Virus record (IMG/VR): IMGVR_UViG_3300048076_000002
Location: 1 to 52,269 of that record
Reading direction: 5' to 3' (one strand)
Length of the DNA: 52,269 bases
Origin: a virus
Of the stretch, positions 6,876 to 52,269 are shown in pieces. Position 1 is the first letter of the stretch. The number at the start of each line of letters is the position of its first letter. The notes beneath the pieces are model-generated. The model ran no database searches. It saw only the letters and a list, made by a program, of their open reading frames with translations, and had not been told where the DNA came from. The position numbers were made by a program, and so were the translations under genes.

Positions 6876-6885
6876 TGACAGTAAT
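6876..6885 (+). repeat. TGACAGTAAT(CA) motif copy
   Basis: Intergenic. It lies 6 nt after the stop of 6892..7197 and 26 nt before the radical SAM ATG. Confidence 0.9.
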
Positions 6886-6891
6886 CAAATG

Positions 6892-7197: not shown

Positions 7198-7214
7198 GGC
7201 TTACTCTCTTTCAA

Positions 7215-8294
7215 CTAAATATGATCCACCACGTACTCAGGCGAATGATTGAAGTTACGCCTGAACATTTCAATATCGTACGCCAGTTTAGATGTGACTT
7301 GTCTATAGTCGTAAAGCAGTGTTGCTCTGTCGGCAAAGAATTTTTGCCGCTCAGGACTATATTTAGCTTCCATCCCAAGAATCACTTCGTCAATTTCCAT
7401 CAACGACATTTCACGGAAGTTAACACGAGTCAGATTCTCGTCGATGCCAGGAATGTACTCGTCGATCGGCAAGTCAGTCAGCACAGCACAACCACAAGCC
7501 GTTGATTCCACAATCTTACGCAAAGCGTACCCATACCGGCTACATGTACAAATAGAGATTTTGAAGCGTGATAGGTGCTGCATGAATCCAGGTGTGTTAC
7601 ATCCTTTACGATGATACCCAGGATGAGGCAGTACAGATGCTGCCAAACCTCGATGAGCCAACAAATGCTGCCGTTCAGGGTACGCATTCGATATTGCACC
7701 GCTGAACAGGCAGCCCTGCCGTCCTTTATCACTGTAGTCGGGTACTTTATCAGCGTCAACAGTGTGCCAGGTCCGAATCAGATGCCCGGCACGAGTGTAC
7801 GGAGCAAGATGATTGACGATGCGGGGATTGTAATAAACGATCCAGCCATGCACGCCCAACTCTTCAGCAGCTTCGCGATGCCACTGTGGCCGCTGTTGAG
7901 CATCTTTCAGTACCGTAAGCCGTAGTATGGCTTTATTATTCCTGAAAGCATCTAAGTTACGAAACTGTGCTTTTGGCTCGCGAAAGTCGCCTTGCGGAAA
8001 CCACTCCCGCTTATCTTGCATGACAACGATACCCGGCTTTACGTCTCTCACAATGAAATGGCAGTCAGTCATACCGCATGGCAGTCCGTACCCGCAGTGC
8101 GTATAACCGGCTTTCGCCAAGCCCGCAGTTATCTGCCAGCCTTCATCTGTCATATGATGCTGCATTGACGCAACACCCAGCACGGCACGACCTGCCATTT
8201 CTGGCTCCGGACAATAAGCAGGCGTCCTGAGTATAGGCGTTTGTTCGAGAGGCTTATTGCTGTCGATTATCTGCTGAATGGTGAGCGGTTGCAT
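7215..8294 (-). CDS. GT-B-type glycosyltransferase (CgeB/Glyco_trans_1_2-like)
   Basis: The C-terminal ISICTCSRYGYALRKIVESTACGCAVLTDLPIDEYIPG fits the GT1/GT4 C-domain. Start moved to ATG 8294 because it is preceded by the conserved leader TCTCAGAAGTTTTCGTCAGG. Confidence 0.6.
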   Translation of the reverse strand: MQPLTIQQIIDSNKPLEQTPILRTPAYCPEPEMAGRAVLGVASMQHHMTDEGWQITAGLAKAGYTHCGYGLPCGMTDCHFIVRDVKPGIVVMQDKREWFPQGDFREPKAQFRNLDAFRNNKAILRLTVLKDAQQRPQWHREAAEELGVHGWIVYYNPRIVNHLAPYTRAGHLIRTWHTVDADKVPDYSDKGRQGCLFSGAISNAYPERQHLLAHRGLAASVLPHPGYHRKGCNTPGFMQHLSRFKISICTCSRYGYALRKIVESTACGCAVLTDLPIDEYIPGIDENLTRVNFREMSLMEIDEVILGMEAKYSPERQKFFADRATLLYDYRQVTSKLAYDIEMFRRNFNHSPEYVVDHI

Positions 8295-8335
8295 GGATGA
8301 GCCTGACGAAAACTTCTGAGATATTAGTACAGCCA

Positions 8336-8503
8336 TTAACTGCGTCGTAAATAAGCAGTCGCTAAATCGCTAAACAGGATAGACAGGAAAGAGCACAGCA
8401 GCGTTTCAGCAGTCATTCTTTCAGCGATAAAGTATGCCGAAAGAAGCAGTAATACAGTTCCAATCACAGCACTAGCCAAAGCATACGTCCGATTCTTATT
8501 CAT
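8336..8503 (-). CDS. small membrane protein (2 predicted TM segments)
   Basis: MNKNRTYALASAVIGTVLLLLSAYFIAE...LLCSFLSILF. Its ATG overlaps the upstream stop as ATGA. Confidence 0.5.
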   Translation of the reverse strand: MNKNRTYALASAVIGTVLLLLSAYFIAERMTAETLLCSFLSILFSDLATAYLRRS

Positions 8504-10059
8504 ATTATTGGTCCTGAATGAGGAAGTGATCTGTACACGTTGTAGCACTCACCGGGGAATGATTTCGCATGAGCGTACCGCGTATCGCTTTCATTACTAT
8601 TCCAGGGATTACCCATCGAAGACTCAATCCCGACATGTTGAGTTAATGAAGGGTTATGAATGAATTCTGACACACTACACTCAGCCAGAGCTCCCAGTAC
8701 AGCACCGTCTAAAGCAACATTCCCTAACTGAGCATCATGACGGCGAGTGATAAATCTCCGGCTCGACAACAGCATTTCCACAACATGATGCCGGAACACT
8801 AAAGCTATAGCACCCCGACCGCGTTGATAACCACTCTTACCTCTGTATGCTTCCATCCATCCCGGCTGACGATCATGGATGATCTCTTCGTTTTCCATAA
8901 ATGTCAATAGATTGATATATGAATTTTGAGGAATTTGAGAAAATAATATGTAGTCTTTCAGTCCCTTCACGCAACGAATATCGTCCTGAAAGACAGCGTA
9001 ATACTCACTCCAGGGGTCAGCTGAATACATGTCCAGTAGTGTGCGATGCCAGTGAAATACAGTTCCCATTCGCGGGTACTGCTTAACTACAGCGAGTACC
9101 TGTTGCAACTTATCGTCATTCAACCTGACCGTGCAACTCTGATCATCTGACGCAAAACTGTGCCGAGACTTGATGCTCACATCAGGAACTAAATCACGAA
9201 AGCATTCCCATGACGACATAAGCGAACTGTCGCTAGCGTTCTGCTGTGGACTGTTTGACCGGCTGAACAGGCTATCCCGATCCAAGTATCCATCCACGTA
9301 CAATGTTATCTTGTTAAACCCACCAGCAGCCAATGACAGTAATGAGGATTTAGTGTAAAATGGATTGTTTGCCCGATCCGGTATCGTTGTCATACCACAA
9401 GTCCAAGTGCCGGGGATGAAAGGCATCTGATTCTTTGGATTTGAATCCCCGCCGTTCCATTCATGCACAAGCTGTTTGAGCCTGTCAAAATGACCCAACG
9501 TATCAATAACACGACGGTGGCACAGATGATTAGCGTGATAACCGTACACTACGCCAGGGATACCAAGCTCGCTTATCTTCCGCTTGAATGCTGCTAACGT
9601 GCCGTCGTGGATACTGCCGACGAGTACACGCTCTGGCGGCACAGGCGGCTTAATATCTGCTTTCTGACCACCACTCAACCAGTTATTCACCCATTCACCA
9701 ACAGCGTTAATTTTCTTCTGTCTTTCTTCACAGTTGCAGGGAGCACCCAGCCATCTGGAGTAGCGTTCCTTAGTGATGCCAAAGAATTCCAATCCTTTGG
9801 CAATCTTATCCCCCCAACCGTCCGGCTCATGAATCACCGTATTGTACGAGGTCTCTTCCAAGTCAATACCTGTGAACTCGCTGTATAACTTCCTGGCCAG
9901 CGTTACTTGACTTGACTGACATTGCAGTCGTCGTGTACCGTCAGCCGACATACTGCCGAAGTATAGTTCAAACCGGCCATCAACGAACCTGGCGAACTCT
10001 GCCCGCTGATCTTCTGCAATTTTACCTAGTGGTACGCGGTCGTTTGCTACGGCAGACAT
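8500..10059 (-). CDS. two-domain glycosyltransferase-like protein (paralog of 10123..11079)
   Basis: The C-terminal half shares the blocks TTIPDR, FQDDIRCV, NLLTFMENEE, ALVF and HNPSLTQHVGIESSMGNPW with the next gene. Confidence 0.55.
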   Translation of the reverse strand: MSAVANDRVPLGKIAEDQRAEFARFVDGRFELYFGSMSADGTRRLQCQSSQVTLARKLYSEFTGIDLEETSYNTVIHEPDGWGDKIAKGLEFFGITKERYSRWLGAPCNCEERQKKINAVGEWVNNWLSGGQKADIKPPVPPERVLVGSIHDGTLAAFKRKISELGIPGVVYGYHANHLCHRRVIDTLGHFDRLKQLVHEWNGGDSNPKNQMPFIPGTWTCGMTTIPDRANNPFYTKSSLLSLAAGGFNKITLYVDGYLDRDSLFSRSNSPQQNASDSSLMSSWECFRDLVPDVSIKSRHSFASDDQSCTVRLNDDKLQQVLAVVKQYPRMGTVFHWHRTLLDMYSADPWSEYYAVFQDDIRCVKGLKDYILFSQIPQNSYINLLTFMENEEIIHDRQPGWMEAYRGKSGYQRGRGAIALVFRHHVVEMLLSSRRFITRRHDAQLGNVALDGAVLGALAECSVSEFIHNPSLTQHVGIESSMGNPWNSNESDTRYAHAKSFPGECYNVYRSLPHSGPII

Positions 10060-10122
10060 AGAGCACCTGACTGAGAGTTAAGCAACACCCGACGACAACT
10101 TCTGAGATAGGAATATATTGCG

Positions 10123-11079
10123 TTAGCTTACATGATCCGTGAGTTTAATCAACTGACATGCATCAAACTCTTCCCCCGGAAATATAGGCGACTGAGGATA
10201 GCGTTTTGTGTCTCGCACGTCAACATCGATTTTCTGCCAATGATTTCCCATCGAACTCTTGATGCCGGTGTGTTGTACCAGTGATGGATTATGACAGTAC
10301 TCTTTCCAGCCAGCACGACGCATCGCTTCAACCACCCCGCCATCTAATGCTCGATATCGCAGTTCCGGGTTCCACAGACGTTTGAGCAAACTTGACTGTG
10401 ACATCAAAGCCACTACAGCCTCGTTGCTAAACACCAAAGCAACGCCACCGTATCCATTCTGGTTAGTCTGTCTCCAGCCGTGCTCTAATTTGTTTGGCCA
10501 TTTATCCTCATTGCCCATGAACGTGAATAGGTTACAGTATCCGTTTTGCGGATACGTGGAATTATCCAAGTAGCTCCGTAGGTTTTTACATAACACTATA
10601 TCGTCCTGGAAAATTGCAAACCGCGTTGCATACGGATCGCGAATGTAAAGTTCGAGCAGTGTCAGCAGCCAGTGACCGTACGTGCGAATGTTAGATTCTC
10701 GAAAGACTGTTGGCAGCTTGTAATTACCGTACAGGTCGCTGTGCGGGCTGTCAACAAAGATGATTGGTGATCCGAATCCGGCTTTTACAAGAGAAGCCAT
10801 TGTACGGTCAAATAAGTCTTTCCTGGACGGCACAGTCGTTATCGCGTACATCCATCTTGGCGGACCTATGTACTTTGGGAGTAAGCCTGATTCCCTGTCA
10901 TTCCATTGAGATAAGTAATCCCGCATTTGATTCGCACTACTCTGCGGGGCACTTATTCGCCGCATCCCATCGCCGGTACGACTGCCCTTCACCGCTCCGG
11001 GTATATGCGTGTAAACCGATCGAAGTAATTCGTCGGCTTCATCGTCTTTCACTTTTCCACAGACAACGAGTTTACTCAT
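10123..11079 (-). CDS. GT-A-fold glycosyltransferase-like protein
   Basis: AITTVPSRKDLFDRTMASLVKAGF, the DxD-like FQDDIVLC, and HNPSLVQHTGIKSSMGNHW. Confidence 0.6.
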   Translation of the reverse strand: MSKLVVCGKVKDDEADELLRSVYTHIPGAVKGSRTGDGMRRISAPQSSANQMRDYLSQWNDRESGLLPKYIGPPRWMYAITTVPSRKDLFDRTMASLVKAGFGSPIIFVDSPHSDLYGNYKLPTVFRESNIRTYGHWLLTLLELYIRDPYATRFAIFQDDIVLCKNLRSYLDNSTYPQNGYCNLFTFMGNEDKWPNKLEHGWRQTNQNGYGGVALVFSNEAVVALMSQSSLLKRLWNPELRYRALDGGVVEAMRRAGWKEYCHNPSLVQHTGIKSSMGNHWQKIDVDVRDTKRYPQSPIFPGEEFDACQLIKLTDHVS

Positions 11080-23998: not shown

Positions 23999-24010
23999 TG
24001 ACAGTAATCA
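23999..24010 (+). repeat. TGACAGTAATCA motif copy
   Basis: Its terminal TCA is the protease stop codon (TGA in minus sense). Confidence 0.9.
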
Positions 24011-24721
24011 AATCTGCTTACGAGCCAGCAACTTAGCCCGGCGAGCACGAATATCGTTAAGATTATGCACGGCTGACGGTATCACAGTCTTAGCCAGGGC
24101 TTCAGCCGGGATGTTCAGGCAGTTGAGTACATCCGTCTTAGGCGTGCCGTTGCGTACCGTGTGACAGATGCCTTTCTGTACTGTCTCGTCAGCCGACAGA
24201 TATGTTGTCGCATCCATCATTGCATCCACTTCCGTCTCGCTCATATTCGTGCGAGACGTGAAGATGTTCCGGATTGCTGACTTGTGGGCAGTCCAGCGAT
24301 TTGTTACATCCTGGATTGCTTGTAGCGACCCAATCTCTTCGAGCATGTACGGGTTATGTGCCATGAACAAAGCGTTCTGGCAAATCTCCCGGTGATCAGC
24401 AGCAAGAGTCAGCCATCCGGCTGTACTCATAGCGTAGCCGTCAATGATTGCAGTGACGTTGCCGTGTTCACGCAATGCGTTGTAAATAGCAAGACCGGCT
24501 GATACTTCTCCACCGGCTGAGTTTACACGCATCGTCAGTTGCTTTGGAGCGTCTTTTAGGAAGTTCATCACATTCGCAGGCGTGATCCATTCACCCTTCG
24601 AGCTGTTCACAGGCATGATTTGATCATAAATCAGCAACTGCCTGTCAGCATCGAATCCAACATTAGTTACCAGAACACGACCATCCATCAAAGGCTTACT
24701 GTTCAGGACGTACGATTGCAT
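24008..24721 (-). CDS. ClpP-like (S14) head maturation protease
   Basis: MRVNSAGGEVSAGLAIYNALREHGNVTAIIDGYAMSTAGWL...FMAHNP. Start moved to ATG 24721 (MQSYVLN). Confidence 0.85.
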   Translation of the reverse strand: MQSYVLNSKPLMDGRVLVTNVGFDADRQLLIYDQIMPVNSSKGEWITPANVMNFLKDAPKQLTMRVNSAGGEVSAGLAIYNALREHGNVTAIIDGYAMSTAGWLTLAADHREICQNALFMAHNPYMLEEIGSLQAIQDVTNRWTAHKSAIRNIFTSRTNMSETEVDAMMDATTYLSADETVQKGICHTVRNGTPKTDVLNCLNIPAEALAKTVIPSAVHNLNDIRARRAKLLARKQI

Positions 24722-26765
24722 TTGAAAGCTCCATTGGAAAGTTCTGAGAGGAAAGCCATACAGACACAAGGTTAGTGATGGCGTCAACAGGTTTGCCGTC
24801 ATTCACAGACGGATCAGCGTTAAACTGAGAGTTATTGGTTGCGGATGATGTGGTGATCAGGCCGCACCAGGGTGTCAATTGAGAGTTAAGCATGTGAGCG
24901 AACTTACCACCCGGAGCATAGAACTCATCTACTGCTCGCTTCATGTTCAAAGCATGAACAGCATCGGCAAGCGGTCTGTTATTGACGACTCTTGATGTGC
25001 GTTTCTGTTCAAGCACGCGAGTCTCGTATTCTCGAAGACCGTTAATCACATTGCCAAAAGCTGCCCGCATTTTCTTTTCGTTATCAGCTATCCGCTCAGA
25101 ATGCTTCTTACGCTCAACTTCAGTCTCAGCGTTAACATTTTGCTCACGCCAGGCATTAAAGAATCTGGTTGCCAGGTTACGGATACGCTTATCGAGATGC
25201 TTGTTAGACGGAGCTTGATTCATCTTGCCTGACGGCGGTTTAGACTGAGCAGCAGCGGCTTTATCGGCCACTGCCTTGTGTTCTTCGGCAGACACCATTC
25301 CGTCAAGTGTCTGCTGAGATTGTTGAATGTTTTTCTCAGCCTGTTCGATGCCTTTCTCGGCAGCCTCATTTGCAAGCTCAGCACCTTTCTCAAGGTGCAG
25401 TGAGTGCTCGACGGTCATTAGATTGACCGGAACGTAACGAGGATTTGCAGCAGCATCGCCGGGATTAAACCCAAGACCTAAAACTGCTCGCAATTCTGTG
25501 CGATCAAATGTGCCAATTTCGAACAGCTTACGCAATGAGTCCGCCATCTTATCCAAAACACAGCGGTACAGATAGATCGTCTCGTACTCGAATGCGTAGA
25601 GCATGTGCGACGGTAACGGAAGTATCTCAGTCCGGAATTGGCTACAAATACGAGCGATGAATGGGCCTAAGCCTGTCTGAATAAACAAAGCAATTGCATC
25701 CGACAAGTCAACATCACCGGCATCTGTACCCATGTACGAATGCAGTAACGCTGGCGGGATATTGAAAGCACGAGCTATATCCTCAACACTGAATGCCCGT
25801 GACTCGATGAACTGAAGATGCTGGAATGGCAGACCGACTGTTACAGGCTTTAGATTCTGCTCCAGAATGCGAGACTTAAAGATATCGTCCAACGGAGCTT
25901 CAGGATCTGTCTCAAATAGTTTCTCCATTCGAGCCAGCACGTCAGGTGCAAGCCGATGCTCAGTAGAAAGGAATATCTGCGTAGAAATCCCTTTCTCGTA
26001 GAACGCAATACCACACTTCTCGGCTGCTCGATACATTCTCATCGAGTTCTGACCGTTGAAGATAAATCCTTCACCACAGTGAAACTGTGCGTTAAGCACC
26101 TTGCCGCGAAAGTGAACAACCATATCCTTAGGCAATACCATATGCTGATGTTTATCATCGCGAGTCGTATCGCCTGTATCAATGTAATACAGCAACTGAC
26201 CTTGCTCAGCTTTCAAGCCGTTACTCATCTGCTCCCCGCCTTGAGCTTTGCGGATATTACCTCTCGAAACTCTGGACGGATGGATATAATACAGGCGTCC
26301 TGTACGTCCCATACCGTCAAATTCTCGCATGAAGTAGCAATTACCGTCCATCAGTACGTCAAAGATTATGAGCATGAATGCATCATCTGACTGTAGCTCC
26401 GGATGAAAGTAATGCGAGAATAAGCGTGATGCTGGATGATCGGTTGTGAGAACGATCTTTGTCTTTGCTTGTGTGCCTGACTCGACAGCGTACATCTTAC
26501 GCGGACATATCATCATCATGCCGGTGTAAATATCAATAGCACATCGGACAGCAGCGAGTTTAAGGGAGTTGCTTGCCTGTGACGAATTCAACTGCTCAGA
26601 GTTAATAATACCGTACACGTCAGTCCAGGTCAGAGCACCGGCATTATGCACAGCACCTGGCGTAACAGCTTTCGACGACGAAACAGCGTTGATCACAGAC
26701 AGCATCGCATTACGTGATTCTGCTGCCGACGTGTAACCAAGTTTAGCCATGATCCGGTCGAACAT
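24696..26765 (-). CDS. portal protein (HK97 family) with long C-terminal extension
   Basis: SLKLAAVRCAIDIYTGMMMICPRKMY and the overall N-terminal ~450 aa fit a portal. Positioned between TerL and the protease. Confidence 0.8.
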   Translation of the reverse strand: MFDRIMAKLGYTSAAESRNAMLSVINAVSSSKAVTPGAVHNAGALTWTDVYGIINSEQLNSSQASNSLKLAAVRCAIDIYTGMMMICPRKMYAVESGTQAKTKIVLTTDHPASRLFSHYFHPELQSDDAFMLIIFDVLMDGNCYFMREFDGMGRTGRLYYIHPSRVSRGNIRKAQGGEQMSNGLKAEQGQLLYYIDTGDTTRDDKHQHMVLPKDMVVHFRGKVLNAQFHCGEGFIFNGQNSMRMYRAAEKCGIAFYEKGISTQIFLSTEHRLAPDVLARMEKLFETDPEAPLDDIFKSRILEQNLKPVTVGLPFQHLQFIESRAFSVEDIARAFNIPPALLHSYMGTDAGDVDLSDAIALFIQTGLGPFIARICSQFRTEILPLPSHMLYAFEYETIYLYRCVLDKMADSLRKLFEIGTFDRTELRAVLGLGFNPGDAAANPRYVPVNLMTVEHSLHLEKGAELANEAAEKGIEQAEKNIQQSQQTLDGMVSAEEHKAVADKAAAAQSKPPSGKMNQAPSNKHLDKRIRNLATRFFNAWREQNVNAETEVERKKHSERIADNEKKMRAAFGNVINGLREYETRVLEQKRTSRVVNNRPLADAVHALNMKRAVDEFYAPGGKFAHMLNSQLTPWCGLITTSSATNNSQFNADPSVNDGKPVDAITNLVSVWLSSQNFPMELSNAIVRPEQ

Positions 26766-29637: not shown

Positions 29638-30588
29638 TTACGGTCTGAACCAAAGATGCGGTAGAAGGTCTGACCCGCTGCCTGCTGTTAAAGAACCCGC
29701 AGACGGCGGAAGTGTAGTGCCAGATCCTGACTCATACCAGTGATGAATAGGCACCCCGTTTGTTGCCGTCCATCCCAAGTATTTATCCATGATTAGACGA
29801 CCAGTACCCGACGTGGAATGAGTCTGCATCGTCGCATTTGTGCTGGAGATAAACGCAAGGAAGTAAGCACCTGCGGCCACTGCCTGACTGACAGCCATTT
29901 CATAGTCAGTCCCAACACCTGTGGTTGTACCGAAGTCGTATAGCAGAGAACTTGGCTGTCCGCCGACGTTTGAATAAAGACCATACCGCACTGTTCCGCC
30001 GCCGGTAACCATTATCGAACCAACTTTAGCAAACGTCACATCTGACCAAATGACGCACGGCAAATAGTAAACGCGATTTGCTACCAGAGCACCGGAAGAA
30101 AGCACTCCACCGTTATAGCACGGGTAGTAGGCGTTGGCCCGATACCCAAAAGATGGAGCGTTAGTACCATTAGTGCCGTTGGTGCCATTATCGCCAGCGG
30201 GGCCTATTAACGAAACGCCTGCACCCCACTCGCCTGCTGTTTTAGGCCCGTACAAAACACTAGTTGTTGTCCGGATATAGAAATCGCCGTTAACGCCTTC
30301 TGTTGTGGGGACTGCTATACCGCTGAGAACAGAAAACCCATTAGTGCCGTCAATACCGTCAGTACCGTCAGTACCGTCAGTACCGTCAGTACCATTAGTG
30401 CCAGCAGTTCCGCCGATTGTAAGACTGTCTGTATCAGCGTCCCATGCTAATGTTATTCCACCGTCAGCGATGATCTCAATGTTCTGACCAGCACCATCAG
30501 TGCTTTCTGCATTACCAACCAATCGATGACTCTCGACGCCAAGTAATAGTCCGACGTTAGGTGTTATCATTGAACCACCCATGTTCAT
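29638..30588 (-). CDS. collagen-like repeat fibre protein
   Basis: G-X-Y runs GTAGTNGTDGTDGTDGTDGIDGTNG and GPAGDNGTNGTNGTN, followed by a ~180-aa globular C-terminus. Confidence 0.65.
   Translation of the reverse strand: MNMGGSMITPNVGLLLGVESHRLVGNAESTDGAGQNIEIIADGGITLAWDADTDSLTIGGTAGTNGTDGTDGTDGTDGIDGTNGFSVLSGIAVPTTEGVNGDFYIRTTTSVLYGPKTAGEWGAGVSLIGPAGDNGTNGTNGTNAPSFGYRANAYYPCYNGGVLSSGALVANRVYYLPCVIWSDVTFAKVGSIMVTGGGTVRYGLYSNVGGQPSSLLYDFGTTTGVGTDYEMAVSQAVAAGAYFLAFISSTNATMQTHSTSGTGRLIMDKYLGWTATNGVPIHHWYESGSGTTLPPSAGSLTAGSGSDLLPHLWFRP
30354..30389. repeat. 4 x 9-bp perfect tandem repeat TACCGTCAG inside the collagen-like gene
   Basis: Encodes the (GTD)n triplets. Diverged units flank it at 30345..30353 and 30390..30398. 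Confidence 0.9.
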
Positions 30589-30962: not shown

Positions 30963-31367
30963 TTAGTATGACCTTTCAAATTTAATTGTTGGGGTACGAT
31001 GCAAAGTAACTTCAATGTTTCCTTGCTTAACAGTCAGTCCCGGTACGGTTTTACCGGGATAAGGTGCTTTCGGTGTGCTGTCGGAAATTGACACAGCACT
31101 TAGAGGTACTCCGTGCTCTTTTGCCAGAGTCAGTTTTGCTTCATGCAGATCGGCAAACATGGCCAGCATCGACGACGCTACGGCTGATCCGACGAATAAC
31201 ATCATAGCCGTTACGCTCGTTCTGCTGGCGACAACACTGCTCGTTGTGCCGTGATTCGCTTGTATGTGGCCAATAGCCAAGTAAATGTAAGTAATTGCTA
31301 TCAGCCCTGCAACAATCGCTCCTAACCAGCAGACTGTTATTTCACCCACAAGCATTTTAGTGTCCAT
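30963..31367 (-). CDS. membrane protein (holin candidate)
   Basis: Start moved to ATG 31367 (MDTKMLVGEITVCWLGAIVAGLIAITYIYLAI...). Two hydrophobic segments. TAATG overlap with the upstream gene. Confidence 0.5.
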   Translation of the reverse strand: MDTKMLVGEITVCWLGAIVAGLIAITYIYLAIGHIQANHGTTSSVVASRTSVTAMMLFVGSAVASSMLAMFADLHEAKLTLAKEHGVPLSAVSISDSTPKAPYPGKTVPGLTVKQGNIEVTLHRTPTIKFERSY

Positions 31368-31717
31368 TAGCGTGATACTCCTAACCAGATGAAAACAGAA
31401 CTCAGCACTATCCCGGCAATAGCCCACACTTTAGCACCGGCTATCCCTAAGTCAACTCCATTGAGTAGAGACTTTAGGGCGAAAAATGTAACAGCAAGTG
31501 ACAGCAGGATACCAATTATCAGCAGTGCTGCCATCAGCATCACACCGTATCGCCCTCGAAAGTCAGCTTGAAACTGCATATTCTTTGGGTTGAATTTCAG
31601 CGACTGTGTATCTTTTACGTCTTGCTTACCCTGTACTTCGTCGCTGTCGGCATCTGTATTTGAGTCTTTTGATTCGACTTTCTGAGAAGTCTGTTTTTCC
31701 TGCTTCCGCAATGCCAT
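31367..31717 (-). CDS. membrane protein (holin candidate)
   Basis: Start moved to ATG 31717 (MALRKQEK...). Charged N-terminus followed by two TM segments (VMLMAALLIIGILLSLAVTFFAL and VWAIAGIVLSSVFIWLGV). Confidence 0.5.
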   Translation of the reverse strand: MALRKQEKQTSQKVESKDSNTDADSDEVQGKQDVKDTQSLKFNPKNMQFQADFRGRYGVMLMAALLIIGILLSLAVTFFALKSLLNGVDLGIAGAKVWAIAGIVLSSVFIWLGVSR

Positions 31718-32283
31718 GTTACCAATCCTATCGCTTCTGTAAGTCAAGACCAGGCATAAAAAGAGGCTTCGGCCCCCGGCATAAAAAGGACTTGACTTTA
31801 ACAGTTTCCCAAGCTGCTACTTACTACTTAGTGACATGCCTGTGAGAGTCAGTGCAAGTAATCAGATTCTGATGACGTGCAAGAGAGAGAGATCATTGTA
31901 CGGCAATCGTATTACGTCACATAACTCTATTATTCATAACTCGTCGCATTATGCCCTCTCTATCTCCCACTGTAAAGATGTGAGAGTAATTAACTCTCGG
32001 GGAGATAAGAAAACACAAGCAAGTGATAACTCGCCGGTGTGAAATGCTGAACCACTTTGTTTCAACTAGCACGGTTCACAGGTCCACACTCCTGCCTCTC
32101 ACTAGCGGGGGACTTGATTCAGTCAGGGCACCCCGTAGCCGATGAGATACGTCTCGGCAAACAACTGTACATCCGTTAATTGTAAGCTATCCGCACGGAT
32201 CTTGCAATAGTGGAAAACATTGGAGTTTCATTTTGATTACTGAACAGCCATTCAGTAGTCTCAATAATTTCTAAAATTCCTGA

Positions 32284-38958: not shown

Positions 38959-39645
38959 ATGACCAAGTTATGTTTAACTCTCGATGACTTTGCAACACGA
39001 GTGCTGGCTGAAAGTATCAAGCAATTACGAAAGTCAGGTCCGATCAATACTAAGAAGACGTGCCTGTGGTGCCGTGATCATATGGACCCGAAAGGCTGCT
39101 GTAATCTGCCGGAATACCCTACTCCATTTCAGGTGCATACACTGCCGGACGGTGCGACTGAGTACAGCGATCAGAAGCTTCAGCCATTCGCGATCAAGCC
39201 TAAGCAGGTATTCGTAATTGAAGAGATTGACAGACACTCACGGGTAGCACTCGGTCTGGAGTTGTCTCTCAATTTGATGAAGATGGATGACGAGCACGAT
39301 CTGCCTTACAGGATCATCGAGCACCTAAAAGTAGTCGCTCAGGCAGTCTGTGCTGCGGGTAATGGGTATACCCATTTAGTACCGTGGCGAATCTGGAATT
39401 GTGCATCAGATAGTGAGTGTGTCGGAATCGATGAGGTCAACACCGAGCAGCTATGCACTGTTAAGAATGTGCCATACATCGCTACTGTACTGTCAAAAGT
39501 TCATCGCCACGATGAGATTAAGCTGCCGGGTACACCACCAGGCTACAGATCGACTGAGAGTTATCTGCTGATTGTGCCAGCCGTATTCATTGTTTCCGCC
39601 ATTGCTCATAAGCTGCTGGTCCCGACATATATACAAGCCGAGTAA
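38959..39645 (+). CDS. hypothetical protein with C-terminal TM segment
   Basis: 228 aa with YLLIVPAVFIVSAIAHKLLV near the C-terminus. Followed by a bidirectional terminator. Confidence 0.55.
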   Translation: MTKLCLTLDDFATRVLAESIKQLRKSGPINTKKTCLWCRDHMDPKGCCNLPEYPTPFQVHTLPDGATEYSDQKLQPFAIKPKQVFVIEEIDRHSRVALGLELSLNLMKMDDEHDLPYRIIEHLKVVAQAVCAAGNGYTHLVPWRIWNCASDSECVGIDEVNTEQLCTVKNVPYIATVLSKVHRHDEIKLPGTPPGYRSTESYLLIVPAVFIVSAIAHKLLVPTYIQAE

Positions 39646-39668
39646 TGGATGAGTGCAGCCGAATAACG

Positions 39669-39706
39669 AAGAAACCCAGTTAAGCATAATAACTTAACTG
39701 GGTTTC
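39669..39706. terminator. bidirectional terminator between convergent units
   Basis: A perfect 15-bp stem (AGAAACCCAGTTAAG / CTTAACTGGGTTTCT) with an 8-nt loop. It is flanked by A-rich sequence on the left and T-rich sequence on the right. Confidence 0.75.
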
Positions 39707-39847
39707 TTTTACTTCTTTCGGCACGGCATCATTGATCGTCCGACGTGAACAGGACGTACGCTACAATTGCAATTAACGCCCCAACGTCACATATCCAATT
39801 CCAGATGCTTTTCATGCTATGCCTCAATTCACCAAAGACTCAACGTG

Positions 39848-40249
39848 TCACCTACCACGGCATCCACGTCTCACGTGCTTACCGGCGTGCTTATGGCGGT
39901 GCGAACCACCGCAGTACCGTGAGCGTGAACTCACTTCACTGAAGGATCTATACCTCGAATGCAGCACTGTAGAACTCTGTGAGTAATGAGTCAAAGGTGC
40001 TTGCTGCTTTTCCTTTGTTCTCATCAGAGGACACAGTCCATTAGGGCACTCGTCTGCCGGTGAGCAACTCGATTGCGTTTGATCAGCAGTCGCCTCATCC
40101 AAAGCATCCTGTAGTGACTTAGCAGGTGTTTGAGCGACGATAGGTGCATCCTCGTAGGATTGCAGGATTACACCGGGGTCATCTGTTACACCAGCCATCG
40201 TCGTCGCACATCCAGCCACGAATAGCAACAGTACACAAAACCACTTCAT
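39848..40249 (-). CDS. lipoprotein (o-spanin-like candidate)
   Basis: The N-terminus MKWFCVLLLFVAGCATT carries the lipobox VAGC. Last gene of the minus-strand unit. Confidence 0.5.
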   Translation of the reverse strand: MKWFCVLLLFVAGCATTMAGVTDDPGVILQSYEDAPIVAQTPAKSLQDALDEATADQTQSSCSPADECPNGLCPLMRTKEKQQAPLTHYSQSSTVLHSRYRSFSEVSSRSRYCGGSHRHKHAGKHVRRGCRGR

Positions 40250-40647
40250 TTTGATTTCCTTGACTTACGGGAACGGAAACTGTTGGACGATGGACATACA
40301 CCGCCCGGACACGAACTACTCACATTAAATGAAACCGATTTTGATATCGGCTTTGATCTGTTGTGCAGTGAATCATGGAGATTCAGTAGCTGTTGAAATG
40401 ATAAGTCTTTTAGAGACTCACTGGTCTGACCGTGGTCGTTGATCAGGTGATTTCTTGTCTCGGCTTCTGTCGGGGACCAATCACCTTTTATATTCCAAGA
40501 TATATGGACGGATGAAGTCGTTGTCTTTTTAGACGGAACAACTATCGGCTTTACTGGCTCGACGGCATATCGTCCTGTCGGTTTGAAAATGTCTTGTCCG
40601 AATGCAGACGAACATAGCAGTAGCAAAGCAAACAGAGTACGCATCAC
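40246..40647 (-). CDS. secreted protein (signal peptide)
   Basis: The N-terminus MMRTLFALLLLCSSAFGQ looks like a signal peptide. 4-nt overlaps on both sides. Confidence 0.5.
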   Translation of the reverse strand: MMRTLFALLLLCSSAFGQDIFKPTGRYAVEPVKPIVVPSKKTTTSSVHISWNIKGDWSPTEAETRNHLINDHGQTSESLKDLSFQQLLNLHDSLHNRSKPISKSVSFNVSSSCPGGVCPSSNSFRSRKSRKSK

Positions 40648-41456
40648 TCACCGCCTTCCTCAGTGCTTCCAATCAGATAAAACGTATGATTCTTAAACGT
40701 CCCGGCAAATGAGTCTTCGTGTAAGTATGCACGACCCTCAGCCCCATACTCAATACCCCAGGAATTCTGCATATCGAAGACTTCTCTGTTGCCAACGATA
40801 CACAGGTCATCGCAGTGTACTGCATGGTTTCCCGGTCCATAATCAATGCCTGCGATTCCGCTTTTGCTAATCCGCTGGAAATTGTTACCGGCATGGACCG
40901 CAACGATCGCAATGAAGCCTTTGCATAGTCCAGTCTTCAGACCGTCGATTGTTTCAGCAGCATAGCAGACGATACCCTTATGCAGGGCTGCATTCTCACG
41001 GGCACCTGACTTCCAGAGTGAAGGATAGATATCGTCCCAGTCGGCATACTGTTCTTCTGCAATGCCGACCAATTCCAGATTCTTCAGCCCGTCCTGTAAC
41101 TGGCTTCCCTGGTCTCGCCCGCCATTCATCAACCCGTAGGCAAATGCCCCGCTAAAGAGCTTGCCATCCATAATTCCGCGACGATAGCGGGCTTTACTAT
41201 AGCCGCCAGCCTCAGCGTAGCCGTTGCACGATCCTTTGGTTCGCTGATTCTGAACCCACTTCGGGCCGAATGTTTTACGTGCCGGAATCCTGCCTGGATC
41301 GGTAAGCACCTTTCGCCGTGTTGCCGCGTTCCAAATGTCTATTCCGCTCGCTTCGATAGACGGGAATGCACACACGAACCCATCAGGCAGTATTAGTGAT
41401 CCACAACGACGCTCGTTACCGTGTATGTCGTAGAACGGTTCAAGTTCCTTAACCAT
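40644..41456 (-). CDS. papain-like (C1 family) cysteine peptidase
   Basis: QNQRTKGSC has a Gln 6 residues before the catalytic Cys. GPGNHAVHC supplies the His and MQNSWG the Asn-Ser-Trp-Gly block. No signal peptide. Confidence 0.7.
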   Translation of the reverse strand: MVKELEPFYDIHGNERRCGSLILPDGFVCAFPSIEASGIDIWNAATRRKVLTDPGRIPARKTFGPKWVQNQRTKGSCNGYAEAGGYSKARYRRGIMDGKLFSGAFAYGLMNGGRDQGSQLQDGLKNLELVGIAEEQYADWDDIYPSLWKSGARENAALHKGIVCYAAETIDGLKTGLCKGFIAIVAVHAGNNFQRISKSGIAGIDYGPGNHAVHCDDLCIVGNREVFDMQNSWGIEYGAEGRAYLHEDSFAGTFKNHTFYLIGSTEEGGE

Positions 41457-42213
41457 CTGTTAATCCTCCAATCAGTTTCTTAAGATCACCAATCGTCGCC
41501 GGGATTGGACCTTTATGAAGTACAATCCGAGTCGTCTTGTCGCGAATAACGATTGCTGGAACCTTAATTGGTCCGAGTTCCGCGATTGCTTCCTTGCCTT
41601 TTGCTTCACCAGTCGTCCGGTCGTACAGCCGCCAATCATTCCCAGCGTCAACGAACTCAGTCCAGCCGACAAGAGCGTTCAGTAATACTGCTGTTTCCGG
41701 GCTTCGCTGCATAGTGTCCTCAACGATCGCCACGGAAACCGTTTCCGCCTTCGGTTGAGGATTCGGATTTGGATCAGGTTCCGGGTCAGGTGGTGGACGT
41801 GGACCGCCGACAATCAGCGTTCGTCTGACGATCTCGTCTGCGGTTTCACACACAGTCGGAATGAGAAGCAATTCTGTCGCACCAGGCTTTCCTGCCATGA
41901 CAGTCCATATAAACGGCTGATCGTACTGCCGTGGCTCGTAATCACCGTCACTGTCAGCATACTTCGCTGCCATTGCAAACGGTGATTTCCACTGCTTGAT
42001 CTTCAAAACCCCACCGTCCGGCACCTGAAGAATGATCAGCGGCTTCGTACTTGTGATCATCAACAAACAGTCCCGTGGAACCCCATTCGTACCTTCTGGA
42101 AGGTGAATAACCACCTTCAATGCAGGATCTGGTGACGGCGGAACAGGTTCATCGGCTACCGACATAGAGCAGCAGCCACTGATACAAAGAGCGAGTAGGA
42201 GTAGTCTGTTCAT
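41449..42213 (-). CDS. lipoprotein with Pro-rich linker and thioredoxin-fold-like C-terminal domain
   Basis: MNRLLLLALCISGCCS carries the lipobox ISGC. Also contains PPPDPEPDPNPNPQPK, and the C-terminus ...IKVPAIVIRDKTTRIVLHKGPIP... The fold assignment is tentative. Confidence 0.5.
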   Translation of the reverse strand: MNRLLLLALCISGCCSMSVADEPVPPSPDPALKVVIHLPEGTNGVPRDCLLMITSTKPLIILQVPDGGVLKIKQWKSPFAMAAKYADSDGDYEPRQYDQPFIWTVMAGKPGATELLLIPTVCETADEIVRRTLIVGGPRPPPDPEPDPNPNPQPKAETVSVAIVEDTMQRSPETAVLLNALVGWTEFVDAGNDWRLYDRTTGEAKGKEAIAELGPIKVPAIVIRDKTTRIVLHKGPIPATIGDLKKLIGGLTDG

Positions 42214-42581
42214 TCGTCACCTTCCGTTTCATGAAAAGCTGACGCCAAAGCCATGATAGACATAACAGTTTCTGGAGCAGCATCCACTACGTCGCATAGG
42301 TTATCAATCGCTGCGGCTCGAATTTGTTCGCGGGACATTTTTGGAATCTTTGCCTTTCGATTTCTTTTCTTTGCTTCCCGCCTAGCAATCTTGTCCGCCT
42401 TAGCAACGCTGACCATTACTTTGCGAACAAGCGTTTCGTCGAACGTCCTAGAATCGAAGTTGAATTTGCTCGTGACGTACTCCTGTGGCGTCTGATCTTT
42501 GACTTCCGCTGGAGAACAGTTCTGAAACAGTTTCGCCAACAACATTTGTATTATTGGTCCGATGTTTACTTCCCACCCCAT
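42210..42581 (-). CDS. hypothetical protein (123 aa)
   Basis: GGAG lies upstream. 4-nt overlap with the next gene. Confidence 0.5.
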   Translation of the reverse strand: MGWEVNIGPIIQMLLAKLFQNCSPAEVKDQTPQEYVTSKFNFDSRTFDETLVRKVMVSVAKADKIARREAKKRNRKAKIPKMSREQIRAAAIDNLCDVVDAAPETVMSIMALASAFHETEGDE

Positions 42582-42941: not shown

Positions 42942-43253
42942 TTAGTTCGTTCCGCGTTCTCGTCTTGATTTTTCTAAATGGCAACTGATACACAGTGTTT
43001 GTGAATTCTCCAATGTGTCTTCACCGCCAGACGATAGCGGAATGATATGATCTCTCTCAAGTGCTGACTCTGGATACACCTGACCACACAGAACGTTCTG
43101 GCATGTGAAGTTGTCACGGATGAAAACTTGTAGCCGTTCCTTAGTTCTGCCTTTTCGTCGAAATAGGGACGGCGTTCCTTGCGACTCCGGCACTGTTGAC
43201 TGTCGCGGCTGCTTTGTGATCTTGACTGTTGGGTACTTGAACATGTTTTTCAA
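42942..43253 (-). CDS. HNH endonuclease
   Basis: CQNVLCGQ...ALERDHIIPLSSGGEDTLENSQTLCISCHLEKS. Confidence 0.8.
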   Translation of the reverse strand: MKNMFKYPTVKITKQPRQSTVPESQGTPSLFRRKGRTKERLQVFIRDNFTCQNVLCGQVYPESALERDHIIPLSSGGEDTLENSQTLCISCHLEKSRRERGTN

Positions 43254-46164: not shown

Positions 46165-46371
46165 TCACGGTTTTCGCACAGCAACCGCATCAACATTCGT
46201 ACCAACATAAACATAATGCTGAGACTCTTCATCGTAAAAACGGTAGACGTACCTTCCCATCTCGTTCTGATACACAAGTGTAGCTGTTGGTACAGGCTCG
46301 TCTACTTTTATCACACTTTTTGATGAGCATCCACATACAAACATAAGCACGCACATAGTAATGAATTTCAT
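46165..46371 (-). CDS. small lipoprotein
   Basis: Start at ATG 46371 (MKFITMCVLMFVCGCSSKS) with a lipobox-like VCGC. AAAGGTG lies upstream. Confidence 0.5.
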   Translation of the reverse strand: MKFITMCVLMFVCGCSSKSVIKVDEPVPTATLVYQNEMGRYVYRFYDEESQHYVYVGTNVDAVAVRKP

Positions 46372-46382
46372 GATCACACCTT

Positions 46383-48368
46383 TCACGCTAGTATAATCTT
46401 TGTTTCCTGATCCCAGCGATGCTTGATCAGCGTCATATCAACAGGAGCGTATACGCCTAACTCGCTCGCTGCCTGCTCCATCAATCCCTTGATCTCACGT
46501 ACATGACGTTTAGGAATTCTCTCTCTGACTTCGGTATCCAATTCGTCATGTACTTGTAGTACGATCCGTCCTTCCGGGTACTCATTAACCAGGTAGTCAT
46601 CGACGTACCGCATAGCACGTTTGACGATGACTCCCTCTGATCCCTGCACAATAAAACATACTCCAGCATGAGCAGCTTTCTCCCATTGACCTGTCCACCT
46701 GTTAAACTGGTCACGTACTTCTAGAGGATAGCCATCCAGAGTCTGTACATTCCCGTGTATTGCGATCTGTTCCTTAGTGTGCAGGATGTACTCGTGAGCA
46801 TTCGGGAAGAGTTGCACAACAACATCCCACAAGCCTGGTTGTCCAGCGGTCTTCTCGATCCTTTTGGGTGTCGCACCAAAAATGAACCCGAAATTGACGT
46901 TTTTAGCAACACGCCTTTGGGATTTAGTAGGTACAGCCGAGTCCGACAATCTGAAAATACGACGGGCAGTGTAATCGTGTGCATCCCAACCTCTTGCGAA
47001 GGCATCAATCATTCCTTTCTCGCCAGTTACTACGGCAAATATGCGTAGTTGTAGCTGTGAGTAGTCACCAGATAACCACCACCACCCTGGTGGCGGTCCA
47101 AAACATGAACGCATCATTGGAGATGCTTCAAGCCATTTAGCAATATCATCGGCGTCATCCTCAAATGGATTTCCTGCCTTAGATACTTGCTGCATTCCCG
47201 GATTACGCATCGCAACACGAGTCGTTGCTGTCCCAGTTGAGTTTATGTCTGGATGCAAGTAACCAAGTTTATTACGGCTGTTGTTGTATAGGTTCAGCGA
47301 CTGAAGTTTCTTCTGGTATTTCTTCAGACTAAGGAAGCATCCTAGAAACTGATACTCCCTCGAATTTTCTTCAACAGTCTCATGGAGCTTCAGGAACGTA
47401 TTAGCATCAACTGACGGCTTCTTTTCTTTCTTCGTGTAGCTGACAGGGTCAAGCTGCCACGTCTCAAATAGTAAATCCCGCACACTATCGTCAGTGAGTT
47501 TATCCACTCCGGATAGCTCGAAACATTTCTGAGTGAGAATGTTGATGTAATGGTCACACGCATTCTTACAGTCTTGCAATTCTGGTATGTTGACCCATAT
47601 ACCACGAGTTTCCATTTTCCAGAGTACGTGGTCTATTGAGCGGTTGATATTCAACAGCCTTTCAAGATCGTCGCCGTGAGTGTGCAGCAGGGCAGCAAAG
47701 AAATGTTCGGCTAGCTCATATGTGTTTACGCAGTCGGCTTTCAGATAACGATTCAGTACACCTTCCAGCATCGAGTCAGGAATCTTAGGCCGGAATGCTT
47801 GCGGAATGGCAGCCAGTACAGCATCCGGCAGCCAGTAGTCCATGCGTCCCCACGATGAGCCTTTACGGTTAGATGCAAATGATTCATGATCTCCGTCGTC
47901 TTCGGCAATGATCCAATCACCGTACTGAGCTTTGAATCGCTTTGACCGAACAAGAGCACGGCACTTATTAACCGCCGTCATTAGATCGTCTTCAGACTCG
48001 TACCCCCGATCAAGATACTCTTTGGTCAGCGAGTCCAGGCTCATCTTGTCAATCGAGCAGTTCAAATGAGCAAGCTGCGATATATCGATGATTCGCTTCC
48101 AGAACTCCGGGGAATCAGGTTCACGCCAGTCAATAAGCTCAGCCTCACACAGAGCTTTAACGTCAAACTTAGCGTTATGAGCAATGAGCATGTCAGCGTC
48201 ATTAAACGCCTTGCAGATTGCAGGATTAAATTTTCCTATCCGACTACGAGTCAACGGGTTAACCTGAAGCTGTTGAGACGAGTAGCTACCGTTGTACATC
48301 CCGATTGCAAACGTCGTGCAACCGTTCTGTAGCTTGATGCCAGTCGTTTCAGTATCGAATGAAAGCAT
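46383..48368 (-). CDS. family A DNA polymerase with 3'-5' exonuclease domain
   Basis: Exo I FDTETTG and Exo II HNAKFD. Polymerase motif A SGDYSQLQLRI, motif B RRVAKNVNFGFIFG and motif C LQVHDELD. Confidence 0.9.
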   Translation of the reverse strand: MLSFDTETTGIKLQNGCTTFAIGMYNGSYSSQQLQVNPLTRSRIGKFNPAICKAFNDADMLIAHNAKFDVKALCEAELIDWREPDSPEFWKRIIDISQLAHLNCSIDKMSLDSLTKEYLDRGYESEDDLMTAVNKCRALVRSKRFKAQYGDWIIAEDDGDHESFASNRKGSSWGRMDYWLPDAVLAAIPQAFRPKIPDSMLEGVLNRYLKADCVNTYELAEHFFAALLHTHGDDLERLLNINRSIDHVLWKMETRGIWVNIPELQDCKNACDHYINILTQKCFELSGVDKLTDDSVRDLLFETWQLDPVSYTKKEKKPSVDANTFLKLHETVEENSREYQFLGCFLSLKKYQKKLQSLNLYNNSRNKLGYLHPDINSTGTATTRVAMRNPGMQQVSKAGNPFEDDADDIAKWLEASPMMRSCFGPPPGWWWLSGDYSQLQLRIFAVVTGEKGMIDAFARGWDAHDYTARRIFRLSDSAVPTKSQRRVAKNVNFGFIFGATPKRIEKTAGQPGLWDVVVQLFPNAHEYILHTKEQIAIHGNVQTLDGYPLEVRDQFNRWTGQWEKAAHAGVCFIVQGSEGVIVKRAMRYVDDYLVNEYPEGRIVLQVHDELDTEVRERIPKRHVREIKGLMEQAASELGVYAPVDMTLIKHRWDQETKIILA

Positions 48369-48866: not shown

Positions 48867-49067
48867 CTAAGGACTTAAAACTGCATTCATAATGTAAGGT
48901 AACATAAGTCCTAAAATCACTAATACCGCGAATACAACAAGCCGCTTAAAGGAATGGTATTCAGCCATTCCTTCCGGGCACATACAACCCGATTTTCTTT
49001 CGGTGCATGTATCGCAGGACGAGCAGTAGTATCGTTTACGTTTTATTGACATCACTGTGACTTTCAA
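48867..49067 (-). CDS. small Cys-rich membrane-anchored protein
   Basis: CSSCDTCTERKSGCMCPEG followed by a TM segment LVVFAVLVILGLMLPYIM. Confidence 0.45.
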   Translation of the reverse strand: MKVTVMSIKRKRYYCSSCDTCTERKSGCMCPEGMAEYHSFKRLVVFAVLVILGLMLPYIMNAVLSP

Positions 49068-51957: not shown

Positions 51958-52248
51958 CTACTCACCTCGCCCGGAATACACTCTGCCATCCGTAACTACT
52001 TTCCCACTTGGATCAACGTACACGCTTCCGGCCTCGCACAAGCATCCATTCACCGTGACGGTTCGCGGGCCAACGACGTGGATTCCATGAGAGACCAAAT
52101 AGGCGTCGATCGCGGTGGCAACTTCATCACCAGTCATTCTCACATCCACACCAGGCCCGAACTCGGTTGTACCGCTTCCGTATTTTATGACCATTCCAGC
52201 ATCCACAAGCCGCCGCAGAACAAGCCGGTCAACGCGAGCGGCGGGCAT
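51958..52248 (-). CDS. hypothetical protein (96 aa), 5' part lies in the terminal repeat
   Basis: The ORF start at 52248 corresponds to base 106 of the left repeat copy. Confidence 0.5.
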   Translation of the reverse strand: MPAARVDRLVLRRLVDAGMVIKYGSGTTEFGPGVDVRMTGDEVATAIDAYLVSHGIHVVGPRTVTVNGCLCEAGSVYVDPSGKVVTDGRVYSGRGE

Positions 52249-52269
52249 CGCGTCAACCGAGGCGAAGGC
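52143..52269. repeat. Terminal direct repeat, right copy
   Basis: Identical to bases 1-127. Confidence 0.95.

Follow-up and report, generated by a model that had tools for sequence, protein, structure and literature searches.

The tailed phage whose genome is recorded as IMG/VR virus record IMGVR_UViG_3300048076_000002 (positions 1 to 52,269, the full 52,269 nucleotides of which are referred to here as the window) carries on its minus strand a cassette of five overlapping genes, running from 42581 to 39848 with successive overlaps of 4, 8, 4 and 4 nt. The third gene encodes a papain-like cysteine peptidase, and this enzyme is a genuine member of the C1A papain family with intact catalytic residues. 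It is preceded by the gene for an exported protein with a thioredoxin (Trx) fold, and the two genes stay together throughout the related loci. Judged by profile searches of a complete genome, the peptidase is the only detectable lysin candidate of this phage, and on balance we consider it probable that the cassette is a lysis module in which the peptidase would serve as the endolysin equivalent. A sequence-only reading of the window had described five genes with 4-8-nt overlaps at the end of a minus-strand unit, and all of these open reading frames (ORFs) and overlaps are present.

The peptidase belongs to family C1A

The 270-residue peptidase (40644-41456, minus strand) was characterized through its motifs, a family profile and an AlphaFold2 model. 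The Q-x5-C, His and NSWG motifs that had been read from the sequence are all in place: Q71-x5-C77 (Q71 at 41244-41246, C77 at 41226-41228), H211 (40824-40826) and N231-S232-W233-G234 (40755-40766). The protein begins, as also claimed, without a hydrophobic segment that could act as a signal peptide. In an alignment of 26 homologs Q71, C77, H211, S232 and W233 are invariant and N231 is mostly kept, with Gly at this position in some members. The residue pattern and its spacing are those of papain Gln19/Cys25/His159/Asn175-Ser-Trp.

Searched alone, the peptidase gives no Pfam match at E ≤ 1, lying below the PF00112 threshold, and yields only weak matches to a PHROG annotated 'peptidase' (3e-4) and to actinidin (0.33). 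The profile of its family retrieves cathepsin K at 1.7e-11 together with about 140 further C1A chains. Metagenomes contain 128 close homologs of about 267 residues, many with a precomputed PF00112 match, and two family members, P0263 and P0276, exceed the Pfam cut-off. The structure model (predicted local distance difference test score 94.8, predicted template modelling score 0.92) has the two-lobe alpha+beta fold of papain, and the significant Foldseek matches to it in the PDB are all C1A enzymes, with xylellain (3ois, 2e-12) at the top and procathepsin K among them. A BFVD protein of an uncultured freshwater phage shares 40% identity with the peptidase at a TM-score of 0.94. Further phage proteins of this fold in the same Foldseek list have the UniProt names 'Peptidoglycan binding-like' and 'N-acetylmuramidase (fragment)', and these names are the only, indirect hint that peptidoglycan might be the substrate. 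Since profile and fold searches return C1A alone at significant scores, the question of C1 versus CHAP/NlpC-P60 is settled as C1A. The sequence-only reading had put this question to a structural comparison, and its assignment to C1 is upheld; membership of CHAP or NlpC-P60, which likewise finds no Pfam match, was rejected.

The phage enzyme shares with xylellain of Xylella fastidiosa (PDB 3OIS) and with cathepsin K the two-lobe fold and the order and spacing of the Gln, Cys, His and Asn-Ser-Trp residues, and it resembles the bacterial-type xylellain in having a short N-terminal extension in place of the long I29 propeptide. In contrast with classical C1A enzymes, it is phage-borne, it is always paired with an exported Trx-fold protein, and its family has Asn-Gly after the catalytic Cys (Cys-Asn-Gly) where classical members have Cys-Trp. 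The N-terminal extension (41301-41456) comprises 52 family-specific, well-modelled residues that include a conserved RR(C/L)GSL stretch. Neither a signal peptide nor an I29 propeptide nor the conserved C1A disulfides were found in the peptidase, and no Cys other than C77 is invariant in the alignment. The lack of a hydrophobic N-terminus, the family-specific extension and the status of C77 as sole invariant Cys mark the family as a divergent, cytoplasmically folded C1A subfamily; it is a new, phage-borne branch of a well-known family. A Tat signal or other cryptic export signal in the N-terminus was considered and rejected, as the hydrophobic stretch that should follow RR(C/L)GSL is missing.

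The catalytic Cys is also a site of intein insertion. Three family members (P0152, P0189 and P0204) contain Hint/LAGLIDADG inteins exactly before this residue (GS/C...HN/CNG, the slashes marking the junctions), and four more (P0215, P0228, P0236 and P0266) are intein-bearing as judged by length. Because the insertion lies exactly before the Cys, the catalytic residue doubles as the +1 extein nucleophile of splicing. Inteins typically sit at conserved, functionally important sites.

An exported thioredoxin-fold partner and the conserved module

Directly upstream of the peptidase lies the gene for a 254-residue lipoprotein, W254 (41449-42213, minus strand), identified from its ORF, its lipobox and a structure model. 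Signal peptides and lipoboxes in this work were judged by inspection and with a hydropathy script. The W254 N-terminus, MNRLLLLALCISG followed by Cys, contains the lipobox LALCISG/C, and signal and lipobox together occupy 42172-42213. They are followed by an immunoglobulin (Ig)-like beta-sandwich (about 41809-42114, about residues 34-135 in the model), a Pro-rich linker, PDPEPDPNPNPQP (41740-41808), and a C-terminal domain (41458-41739) of which residues 159-252 model as a beta-alpha-beta-alpha-beta-beta-alpha thioredoxin fold. In Foldseek this last domain matched the thioredoxins 2voc and 2gzy as well as 9bxs_E at probability 1.0 and a weak E value of about 0.02; the partner model as a whole gave only weak Ig-like and thioredoxin matches (E about 1e-2 to 1e-3). 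The earlier description of a lipoprotein with a linker and a thioredoxin-like C-domain thus proved accurate in both parts. A CxxC motif is absent from W254, which has no Cys at the Trx active-site position, and from its 14 homologs. The Cys-less Trx-fold domain may serve in targeting, in activation, or as an inhibitor or pro-domain.

The pairing of the two genes is invariant. A hidden Markov model of the partner family found its linker and Trx-fold domain directly upstream of the peptidase in 26 of the 26 loci that have upstream sequence, and the pairing extends to peptidases only about 32% identical to that of the window. The Trx-fold domain is the conserved part of the partner; the N-terminal domain has been swapped in four of the comparison loci, which are designated here by L numbers (L002, L009, L012 and L019). 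Signal peptides occur in all versions of the partner and lipoboxes in some. In the window, a GGAGGA Shine-Dalgarno sequence is located 8 nt ahead of the peptidase ATG, inside the 3' end of the partner gene. A programmed frameshift that would fuse partner and peptidase in this phage seems unlikely: the peptidase is read in the +1 frame from a strong GGAGGA site of its own, and there is no obvious slippery run.

An exhaustive profile search placed 335 clusters (50% identity) in the peptidase family at E ≤ 1e-30, almost all of 260-290 residues. When the contigs of a species-genome collection were scanned with an alignment of the closer peptidase homologs, the only carriers were contigs binned to metagenome-assembled genomes (MAGs) of Planctomycetaceae or Pirellulaceae. 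The peptidase also occurs in prophage-like regions of two NCBI assemblies (L009, with an integrase, and L027) and on 14 IMG/VR viral contigs; a search for annotated phage relatives gave only one unannotated 595-kb record, at 27% identity. The MAG binning and the prophage contexts suggest that the host phylum is probably Planctomycetes.

The gene directly downstream of the peptidase usually encodes a secreted protein with the motif F-x-P/A-T-G-x-Y-A after its signal peptide. Three interchangeable pieces make up these third-gene proteins: a thioredoxin with WCGPC or another CxxC (PF00085 in L001), a motif of four His residues, and a Cx(N/G)GxC hairpin that carries a basic tail. Natural fusions join the components of the module. 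In P0264, a 556-residue protein of the L027 prophage, a signal peptide, an Ig-like domain, a Pro linker, the Trx-fold domain, the peptidase and a CNQNGTC hairpin follow one another in one chain; P0263 has the same architecture with a truncated N-terminus, and P0116, P0177, P0245, P0271 and P0276 consist of the peptidase with a C-terminal CxxC domain. Because the P0264-lineage peptidase is fused behind a signal peptide, it is expected to be Sec-exported and to act outside the cytoplasm, and because such fusions join the three module components, they provide Rosetta-stone evidence that the three work together.

Two of the small pieces deserve mention in their own right. The four-His motif, HLxxxHG...LxxLxxxE..LHxxxH, and the Cx(N/G)GxC hairpin recur in the third genes of L001, L002, L005, L012, L022 and L023, and they are shuffled among the module genes, with fusions to the peptidase itself among the results. 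Pfam contains no family for either of them.

The genomic position of the module differs among its carriers, in which ORF calls are noisy where the loci are GC-rich. In the L009 prophage the pair lies just upstream of a GpA-type terminase, in L011 it closes the late block, behind tail-fibre genes of the Laminin_G type, and in the L027 prophage the module follows tail-fibre-like genes and is flanked by a protein with an N-terminal transmembrane (TM) segment and by a 75-residue protein with two. In L008 and L013-L016 the pair comes after a cluster of radical-SAM, methyltransferase and glycosyltransferase-like genes, in L001 it follows a portal gene of Mu type, and in L012 it has capsid genes on one side and tail genes on the other. 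Small proteins with one or two TM segments, some of them with coiled coils, adjoin the trio in L001, L008, L010, L016, L018, L021 and L023. No muralytic Pfam domain is present among about 140 annotated module neighbours, and ten unannotated IMG/VR module neighbours match no Pfam family.

An HNH endonuclease gene (42942-43253, minus strand) lies just upstream of the cassette in the window, and in L007 an inserted 214-residue ORF (8871-9515) separates the peptidase from the third gene. Taken with the inteins, these insertions and neighbours suggest that mobile elements often target the module.

A probable role in lysis and the competing explanations

An exact 127-bp direct repeat at the window ends (1-127 and 52143-52269) shows the assembly to be a complete circular phage genome of about 52,142 bp, and the failure to find a conventional lysin in it therefore counts. 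Pfam matches in the window include an HK97-type capsid, a ClpP-type prohead protease, a portal and a large terminase, and in addition a family-A DNA polymerase, a primase-like protein, an AAA_24 ATPase and the HNH endonuclease. The proteome was scanned with PHROGs (20 single and 42 concatenated proteins) and with Pfam (concatenated proteome), NCBIfam and PADLOC were run on the cassette and the TM ORFs described below, and 45 unannotated proteins (8,405 residues in total) were compared with PDB sequences by phmmer at E ≤ 0.01. No family of lysozyme/muramidase, amidase, transglycosylase, M15/M23 peptidase, holin or spanin was found by the Pfam and PHROG scans of the whole proteome, and the phmmer scan gave no match at its threshold; Pfam 'Serglycin' matches are artefacts of the GS linkers in the concatenated proteins. 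The earlier observation that no muramidase, amidase or transglycosylase is recognisable in the genome, leaving the peptidase as sole candidate, therefore stands at the level of sequence profiles, and the conventional endolysin whose discovery was to speak against a lytic role did not appear in the profile search of the proteome.

Two overlapping minus-strand TM ORFs of 154 and 126 residues (30963-31427 and 31367-31747), each with two or three hydrophobic segments by hydropathy, correspond to the holin candidates of the earlier reading. The genome has no other holin-like candidates of appreciable size. The two ORFs are situated at the head of the structural block and match no holin family in PHROGs, Pfam or NCBIfam, and none of the proteins next to the module in other loci, flanking TM proteins included, is homologous to them. 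The proposal that the lipoprotein and secreted neighbours of the peptidase are spanin-like is not supported. None of the five cassette products has the N-terminal TM segment and coiled coil of an i-spanin, and no spanin match was found in PHROGs or NCBIfam. The cassette does encode two lipobox proteins that can be set beside o-spanins, of which W254 is a 254-residue globular two-domain protein tied to the peptidase and the other, w133lp, is an ORFan.

These observations suggest a model in which the cassette would be this phage's version of a conserved envelope-attack module of Planctomycetes-associated tailed phages and prophages. The core of the module would be an obligate pair, the exported Trx-fold protein and a translationally coupled, signal-less and disulfide-free C1A peptidase, to which the window phage would have added an orphan lipoprotein while reducing the third protein to the His motif and the Cx(N/G)GxC tail. 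The course of events, of which we infer from the sequences the timing, the export route, complex formation, the substrate, lysis itself and the link to the distant TM ORFs, would begin with export of the partners, which would wait in the periplasm while the peptidase folds without disulfides and accumulates in the cytoplasm. A holin encoded elsewhere in the genome would then permeabilize the membrane and release the peptidase to the periplasm, where it would join its Trx-fold partner and cleave a load-bearing envelope substrate, possibly the peptide stems or cross-links of peptidoglycan or else a structural envelope protein, and the cell would lyse. In relatives, the CxxC thioredoxins may keep the catalytic thiol reduced, or reduce disulfides of the substrate, in the oxidising periplasm. 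An association of peptidase and partner is suggested by their invariant, translationally coupled pairing and by the colinear natural fusion. The lysis reading gains further support from the obligate nature of the exported partner, from the natural fusions, and from the small membrane-protein neighbours that relatives have at positions typical of lysis cassettes, and the absence of conserved disulfides would fit folding in the cytoplasm, as in canonical endolysins.

Several considerations weigh against this interpretation. The papain-like lysins known to date belong to CHAP, NlpC/P60, Amidase_5 and C71, and cleavage of peptidoglycan is not known for any C1A enzyme; one classification of papain-like enzymes and two endolysin surveys give CHAP, NlpC/P60 and amidases as lysin domains, not C1, which agrees with the sequence-only reading that a papain-fold C1 endolysin would be unusual. 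The peptidase has no cell-wall-binding domain in a Pfam scan. In the two-gene form the partner is exported and the peptidase is signal-less, so that their meeting depends on an unproven release step, and the window cassette contains no TM or holin gene, the only ORFs with two TM segments being 9 kb away. The cassette comes after the replication genes and the HNH gene, not after tail genes, and in L001 and L012 the pair is surrounded by genes of head/tail morphogenesis. For the window phage the redox part of the model has to be dropped because every CxxC has been lost; no thioredoxin-type CxxC occurs in any of the six frames of the window. Finally, the lysin search was based on profiles, to which a cryptic muralytic enzyme among the roughly 45 unannotated proteins could be invisible, and the host assignment is based on three MAG bins and the prophage contexts.

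Non-lytic remodelling of the envelope, an alternative already raised by the sequence-only reading, in which the module would modify or destroy a surface or periplasmic protein of the host such as the phage receptor, whether to block superinfection, to keep progeny from adsorbing to debris or to bring about lysogenic conversion, seems to us unlikely. Export or lipoprotein signals on three of the five cassette products, the presence of the module in the prophages L009 (with its integrase) and L027, a genomic position that varies like that of a mobile moron, the fast-evolving ORFan w133lp and the separation of the cassette from any holin in the window genome would all suit such a function. Yet the peptidase is signal-less in nearly all members of the family and cannot reach the envelope unless the membrane is damaged, no PADLOC defence or exclusion family is matched, and the genome would be left with no lysin candidate at all; the invariant pairing, the size of the family and the active-site inteins suggest a core rather than an accessory function. 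The signal-less peptidase and its exported or lipoprotein partner, encoded by overlapping genes, are also laid out like an effector-immunity pair, which raises the distinctly unlikely case of a hydrolase with an exported inhibitor: the Ig-like/Trx-fold partner would restrain or time the peptidase, and a role in lysis would still be possible. The N-terminal domain of the partner is an Ig-like sandwich, the fold class of the chagasin inhibitors of C1A enzymes. Against restraint as the function of the partner are the lack of a match to Inhibitor_I42 or any other Pfam family, the swapping of this same Ig-like domain in L002, L009, L012 and L019 whereas the Trx-fold domain is conserved, and the natural joining of partner to peptidase within a single exported protein, which fits targeting or a pro-domain better than immunity.

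A cytoplasmic protease that cleaves host proteins of defence, transcription or division during takeover, with exported neighbours that are unrelated to it, would need neither signal peptide nor disulfides and could well be encoded at the end of a replication or early-middle block, as in the window. We regard this as improbable, since an exported partner adjoins the peptidase in all 26 loci, P0264 carries the enzyme fused to that partner behind a signal peptide, the enzyme is also fused to the motif of the secreted third gene, and membrane-protein neighbours recur in the relatives. Least credible of all is a protease of virion morphogenesis acting in prohead or tail maturation, an idea prompted by the position of the pair behind the Mu-type portal of L001 and between the capsid and tail genes of L012. 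The export signals of the partners are incompatible with assembly in the cytoplasm, and other phages have the module outside their structural genes. Moreover, a prohead protease of ClpP type is already encoded in the window at 24008-24802, between portal and capsid, on which ground the peptidase was rejected as a prohead protease.

In older biochemical work the walls of planctomycetes were described as proteinaceous, with much cystine and proline; peptidoglycan was demonstrated only in 2015. It is conceivable, if rather doubtful, that planctomycete phages lyse their hosts not by hydrolysis of murein but by C1A proteolysis of a disulfide-cross-linked, proteinaceous load-bearing layer. The C1A protease would then dock on the exported Trx-fold partner and would be helped, in most lineages, by the secreted CxxC thioredoxin. 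If so, the module would be a natural probe showing that protein, and not only murein, holds planctomycete cells together.

As a system, the cassette most resembles a lysis cassette, from which it differs in enzyme class, in the obligate Trx-fold partner and in the redox accessories. Like lambda-type cassettes, the module clusters overlapping genes for a soluble hydrolase, for exported proteins or lipoproteins and for small membrane proteins, and in relatives it likewise stands before the terminase or after tail genes. Unlike these cassettes, the one in the window has no recognisable holin or i-spanin; where o-spanins are small and Pro-rich, its lipoprotein W254 is a two-domain protein of 254 residues tied to the enzyme, and its hydrolase is of another class. 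The CHAP lysins (LysK CHAPK, PlyC), NlpC/P60, Amidase_5 and the archaeal-virus enzymes PeiW/PeiP (C71) are also phage Cys-His papain-like hydrolases without a signal peptide, and thiol dependence is a known theme among CHAP/NlpC-P60-type papain-like lysins; compared with CHAP and NlpC-P60 lysins by sequence and fold alone, the phage peptidase belongs to another family, C1A, and is devoid of a cell-wall-binding domain. The distinction between canonical and secreted or signal-arrest-release (SAR) endolysins is mirrored by the signal-less and Sec-exported forms of the peptidase, and a link to thiol redox is common to the module, lysis cassettes and SAR endolysins. P1 Lyz, for example, is activated by thiol-disulfide isomerisation, and Lys44 of fOg44 is Sec-exported. 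The amidase effector/immunity pairs of type VI secretion systems (Tae/Tai) and staphopain/staphostatin are hydrolase-inhibitor operons, and they have in common with the phage pair that one operon encodes a signal-less papain-like hydrolase together with a small partner that is exported or a lipoprotein. In contrast with these, the phage pair occurs in a phage context without a type VI secretion system and also exists as a fused exported chain, and Pfam reveals no sequence relation of the partner to the Tai, staphostatin or chagasin families.

A literature search on planctomycete phage lysis, C1 endolysins, and lysis cassettes of protease and thioredoxin returned nothing specific, no lysis system being found for phages of a phylum whose envelope has long been disputed. 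Were the lysis reading to be true, C1A would join the short list of enzyme classes used as phage lysins, an obligate exported Trx-fold partner and a thiol-redox accessory would be new parts of lysis cassettes, and the substrate of the peptidase would reveal the load-bearing polymer of the host cells, be it peptidoglycan peptide or structural protein. The more than 300 sequence clusters, the natural fusions and the intein-bearing variants offer material for dissecting how the parts cooperate. The peptidase itself is small, confidently modelled and readily testable, and might be used to lyse cells of a phylum in which both disruption and genetic manipulation are difficult.

The remaining cassette genes and the surrounding genome

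The two lipoproteins and the signal-peptide protein that had been reported beside the peptidase were recovered by inspection, with lipoboxes in W254 and w133lp and a Sec-like signal in w133sp. The first cassette gene, w123 (42210-42581, minus strand), is an ORF of 123 residues whose product has a short amphipathic or hydrophobic helix at the N-terminus (IGPIIQMLLAKLF) and is basic in the middle and acidic at the C-terminus. The helix lies below the cut-off used for TM segments (Kyte-Doolittle ≥ 1.6), and the protein has no Pfam, PHROG, NCBIfam or PADLOC family; in L004, L008 and L017 the partner gene is likewise preceded directly by a homolog of w123.

Downstream of the peptidase, w133sp (40246-40647, minus strand; 133 residues, identified by ORF and motifs) has an N-terminus, MMRTLFALLLLCSSAFG followed by QD, that resembles a Sec signal. 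Without a Pfam match, it belongs to the 'F-x-P-T-G-x-Y-A' family of secreted third-gene proteins; it lacks the WCGPC thioredoxin module present in relatives and keeps only the His motif (HLxxxHG...LHxxxH, 40357-40461) and the C-terminal CPGGVCP hairpin with its basic tail (40249-40311). The last gene, w133lp (39848-40249, minus strand; 133 residues, identified by ORF and lipobox), begins with MKWFCVLLLFVAG and the lipobox Cys. Most of the protein is of low complexity; it contains a CPNGLCP motif, is very basic at the C-terminus and is weakly similar to w133sp around LxDxL...CPxGxCP; a homolog search of 5.8 billion proteins returned the protein itself and nothing else.

Beyond w133lp, a hairpin with a 17-bp stem (39668-39709) lies between convergent transcription units and separates the cassette from the plus-strand ORF 38959-39645. 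The strong terminator claimed to follow the cassette is thus present as a structure, and it is likely a bidirectional terminator that ends the cassette.

Elsewhere in the genome, the region 4106-11079 holds a cluster with a radical-SAM gene (5813-6850), a Methyltransf_24 gene (4945-5559), a gene for a conserved 300-residue protein (4106-5008) and glycosyltransferase-like genes. An equivalent cluster stands directly upstream of the peptidase module in L008, L013-L016 and L020; in the window the replication block stands between the cluster and the cassette. The cluster may act in the modification either of DNA or of the surface. Between the radical-SAM and methyltransferase genes is an 83-residue ORF (5593-5844, minus strand) that is extremely Cys-rich (CKVCHQCPCCCG..., CDHGHDVCPTCDPCTCGAGLC) and has no family match in a Pfam scan. 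A 316-residue protein with collagen-like G-T-D/G-T-N triplet repeats is encoded at 29638-30588 (minus strand), between the TM ORFs and the large terminase gene, and weakly matches PHROGs annotated 'collagen-like minor tail'. A small plus-strand gene at 35567-35929 matches Pfam Kyano_Gp96 (2.9e-9), a domain otherwise known from cyanophages, as well as phrog_554. Two small envelope-directed ORFs lie within the replication block (46165-46386 and 48867-49067, both minus strand); one encodes a putative lipoprotein of 73 residues with a weak DUF4884 match, and the other a protein of 66 residues that is rich in Cys at the N-terminus and has a TM segment at the C-terminus.

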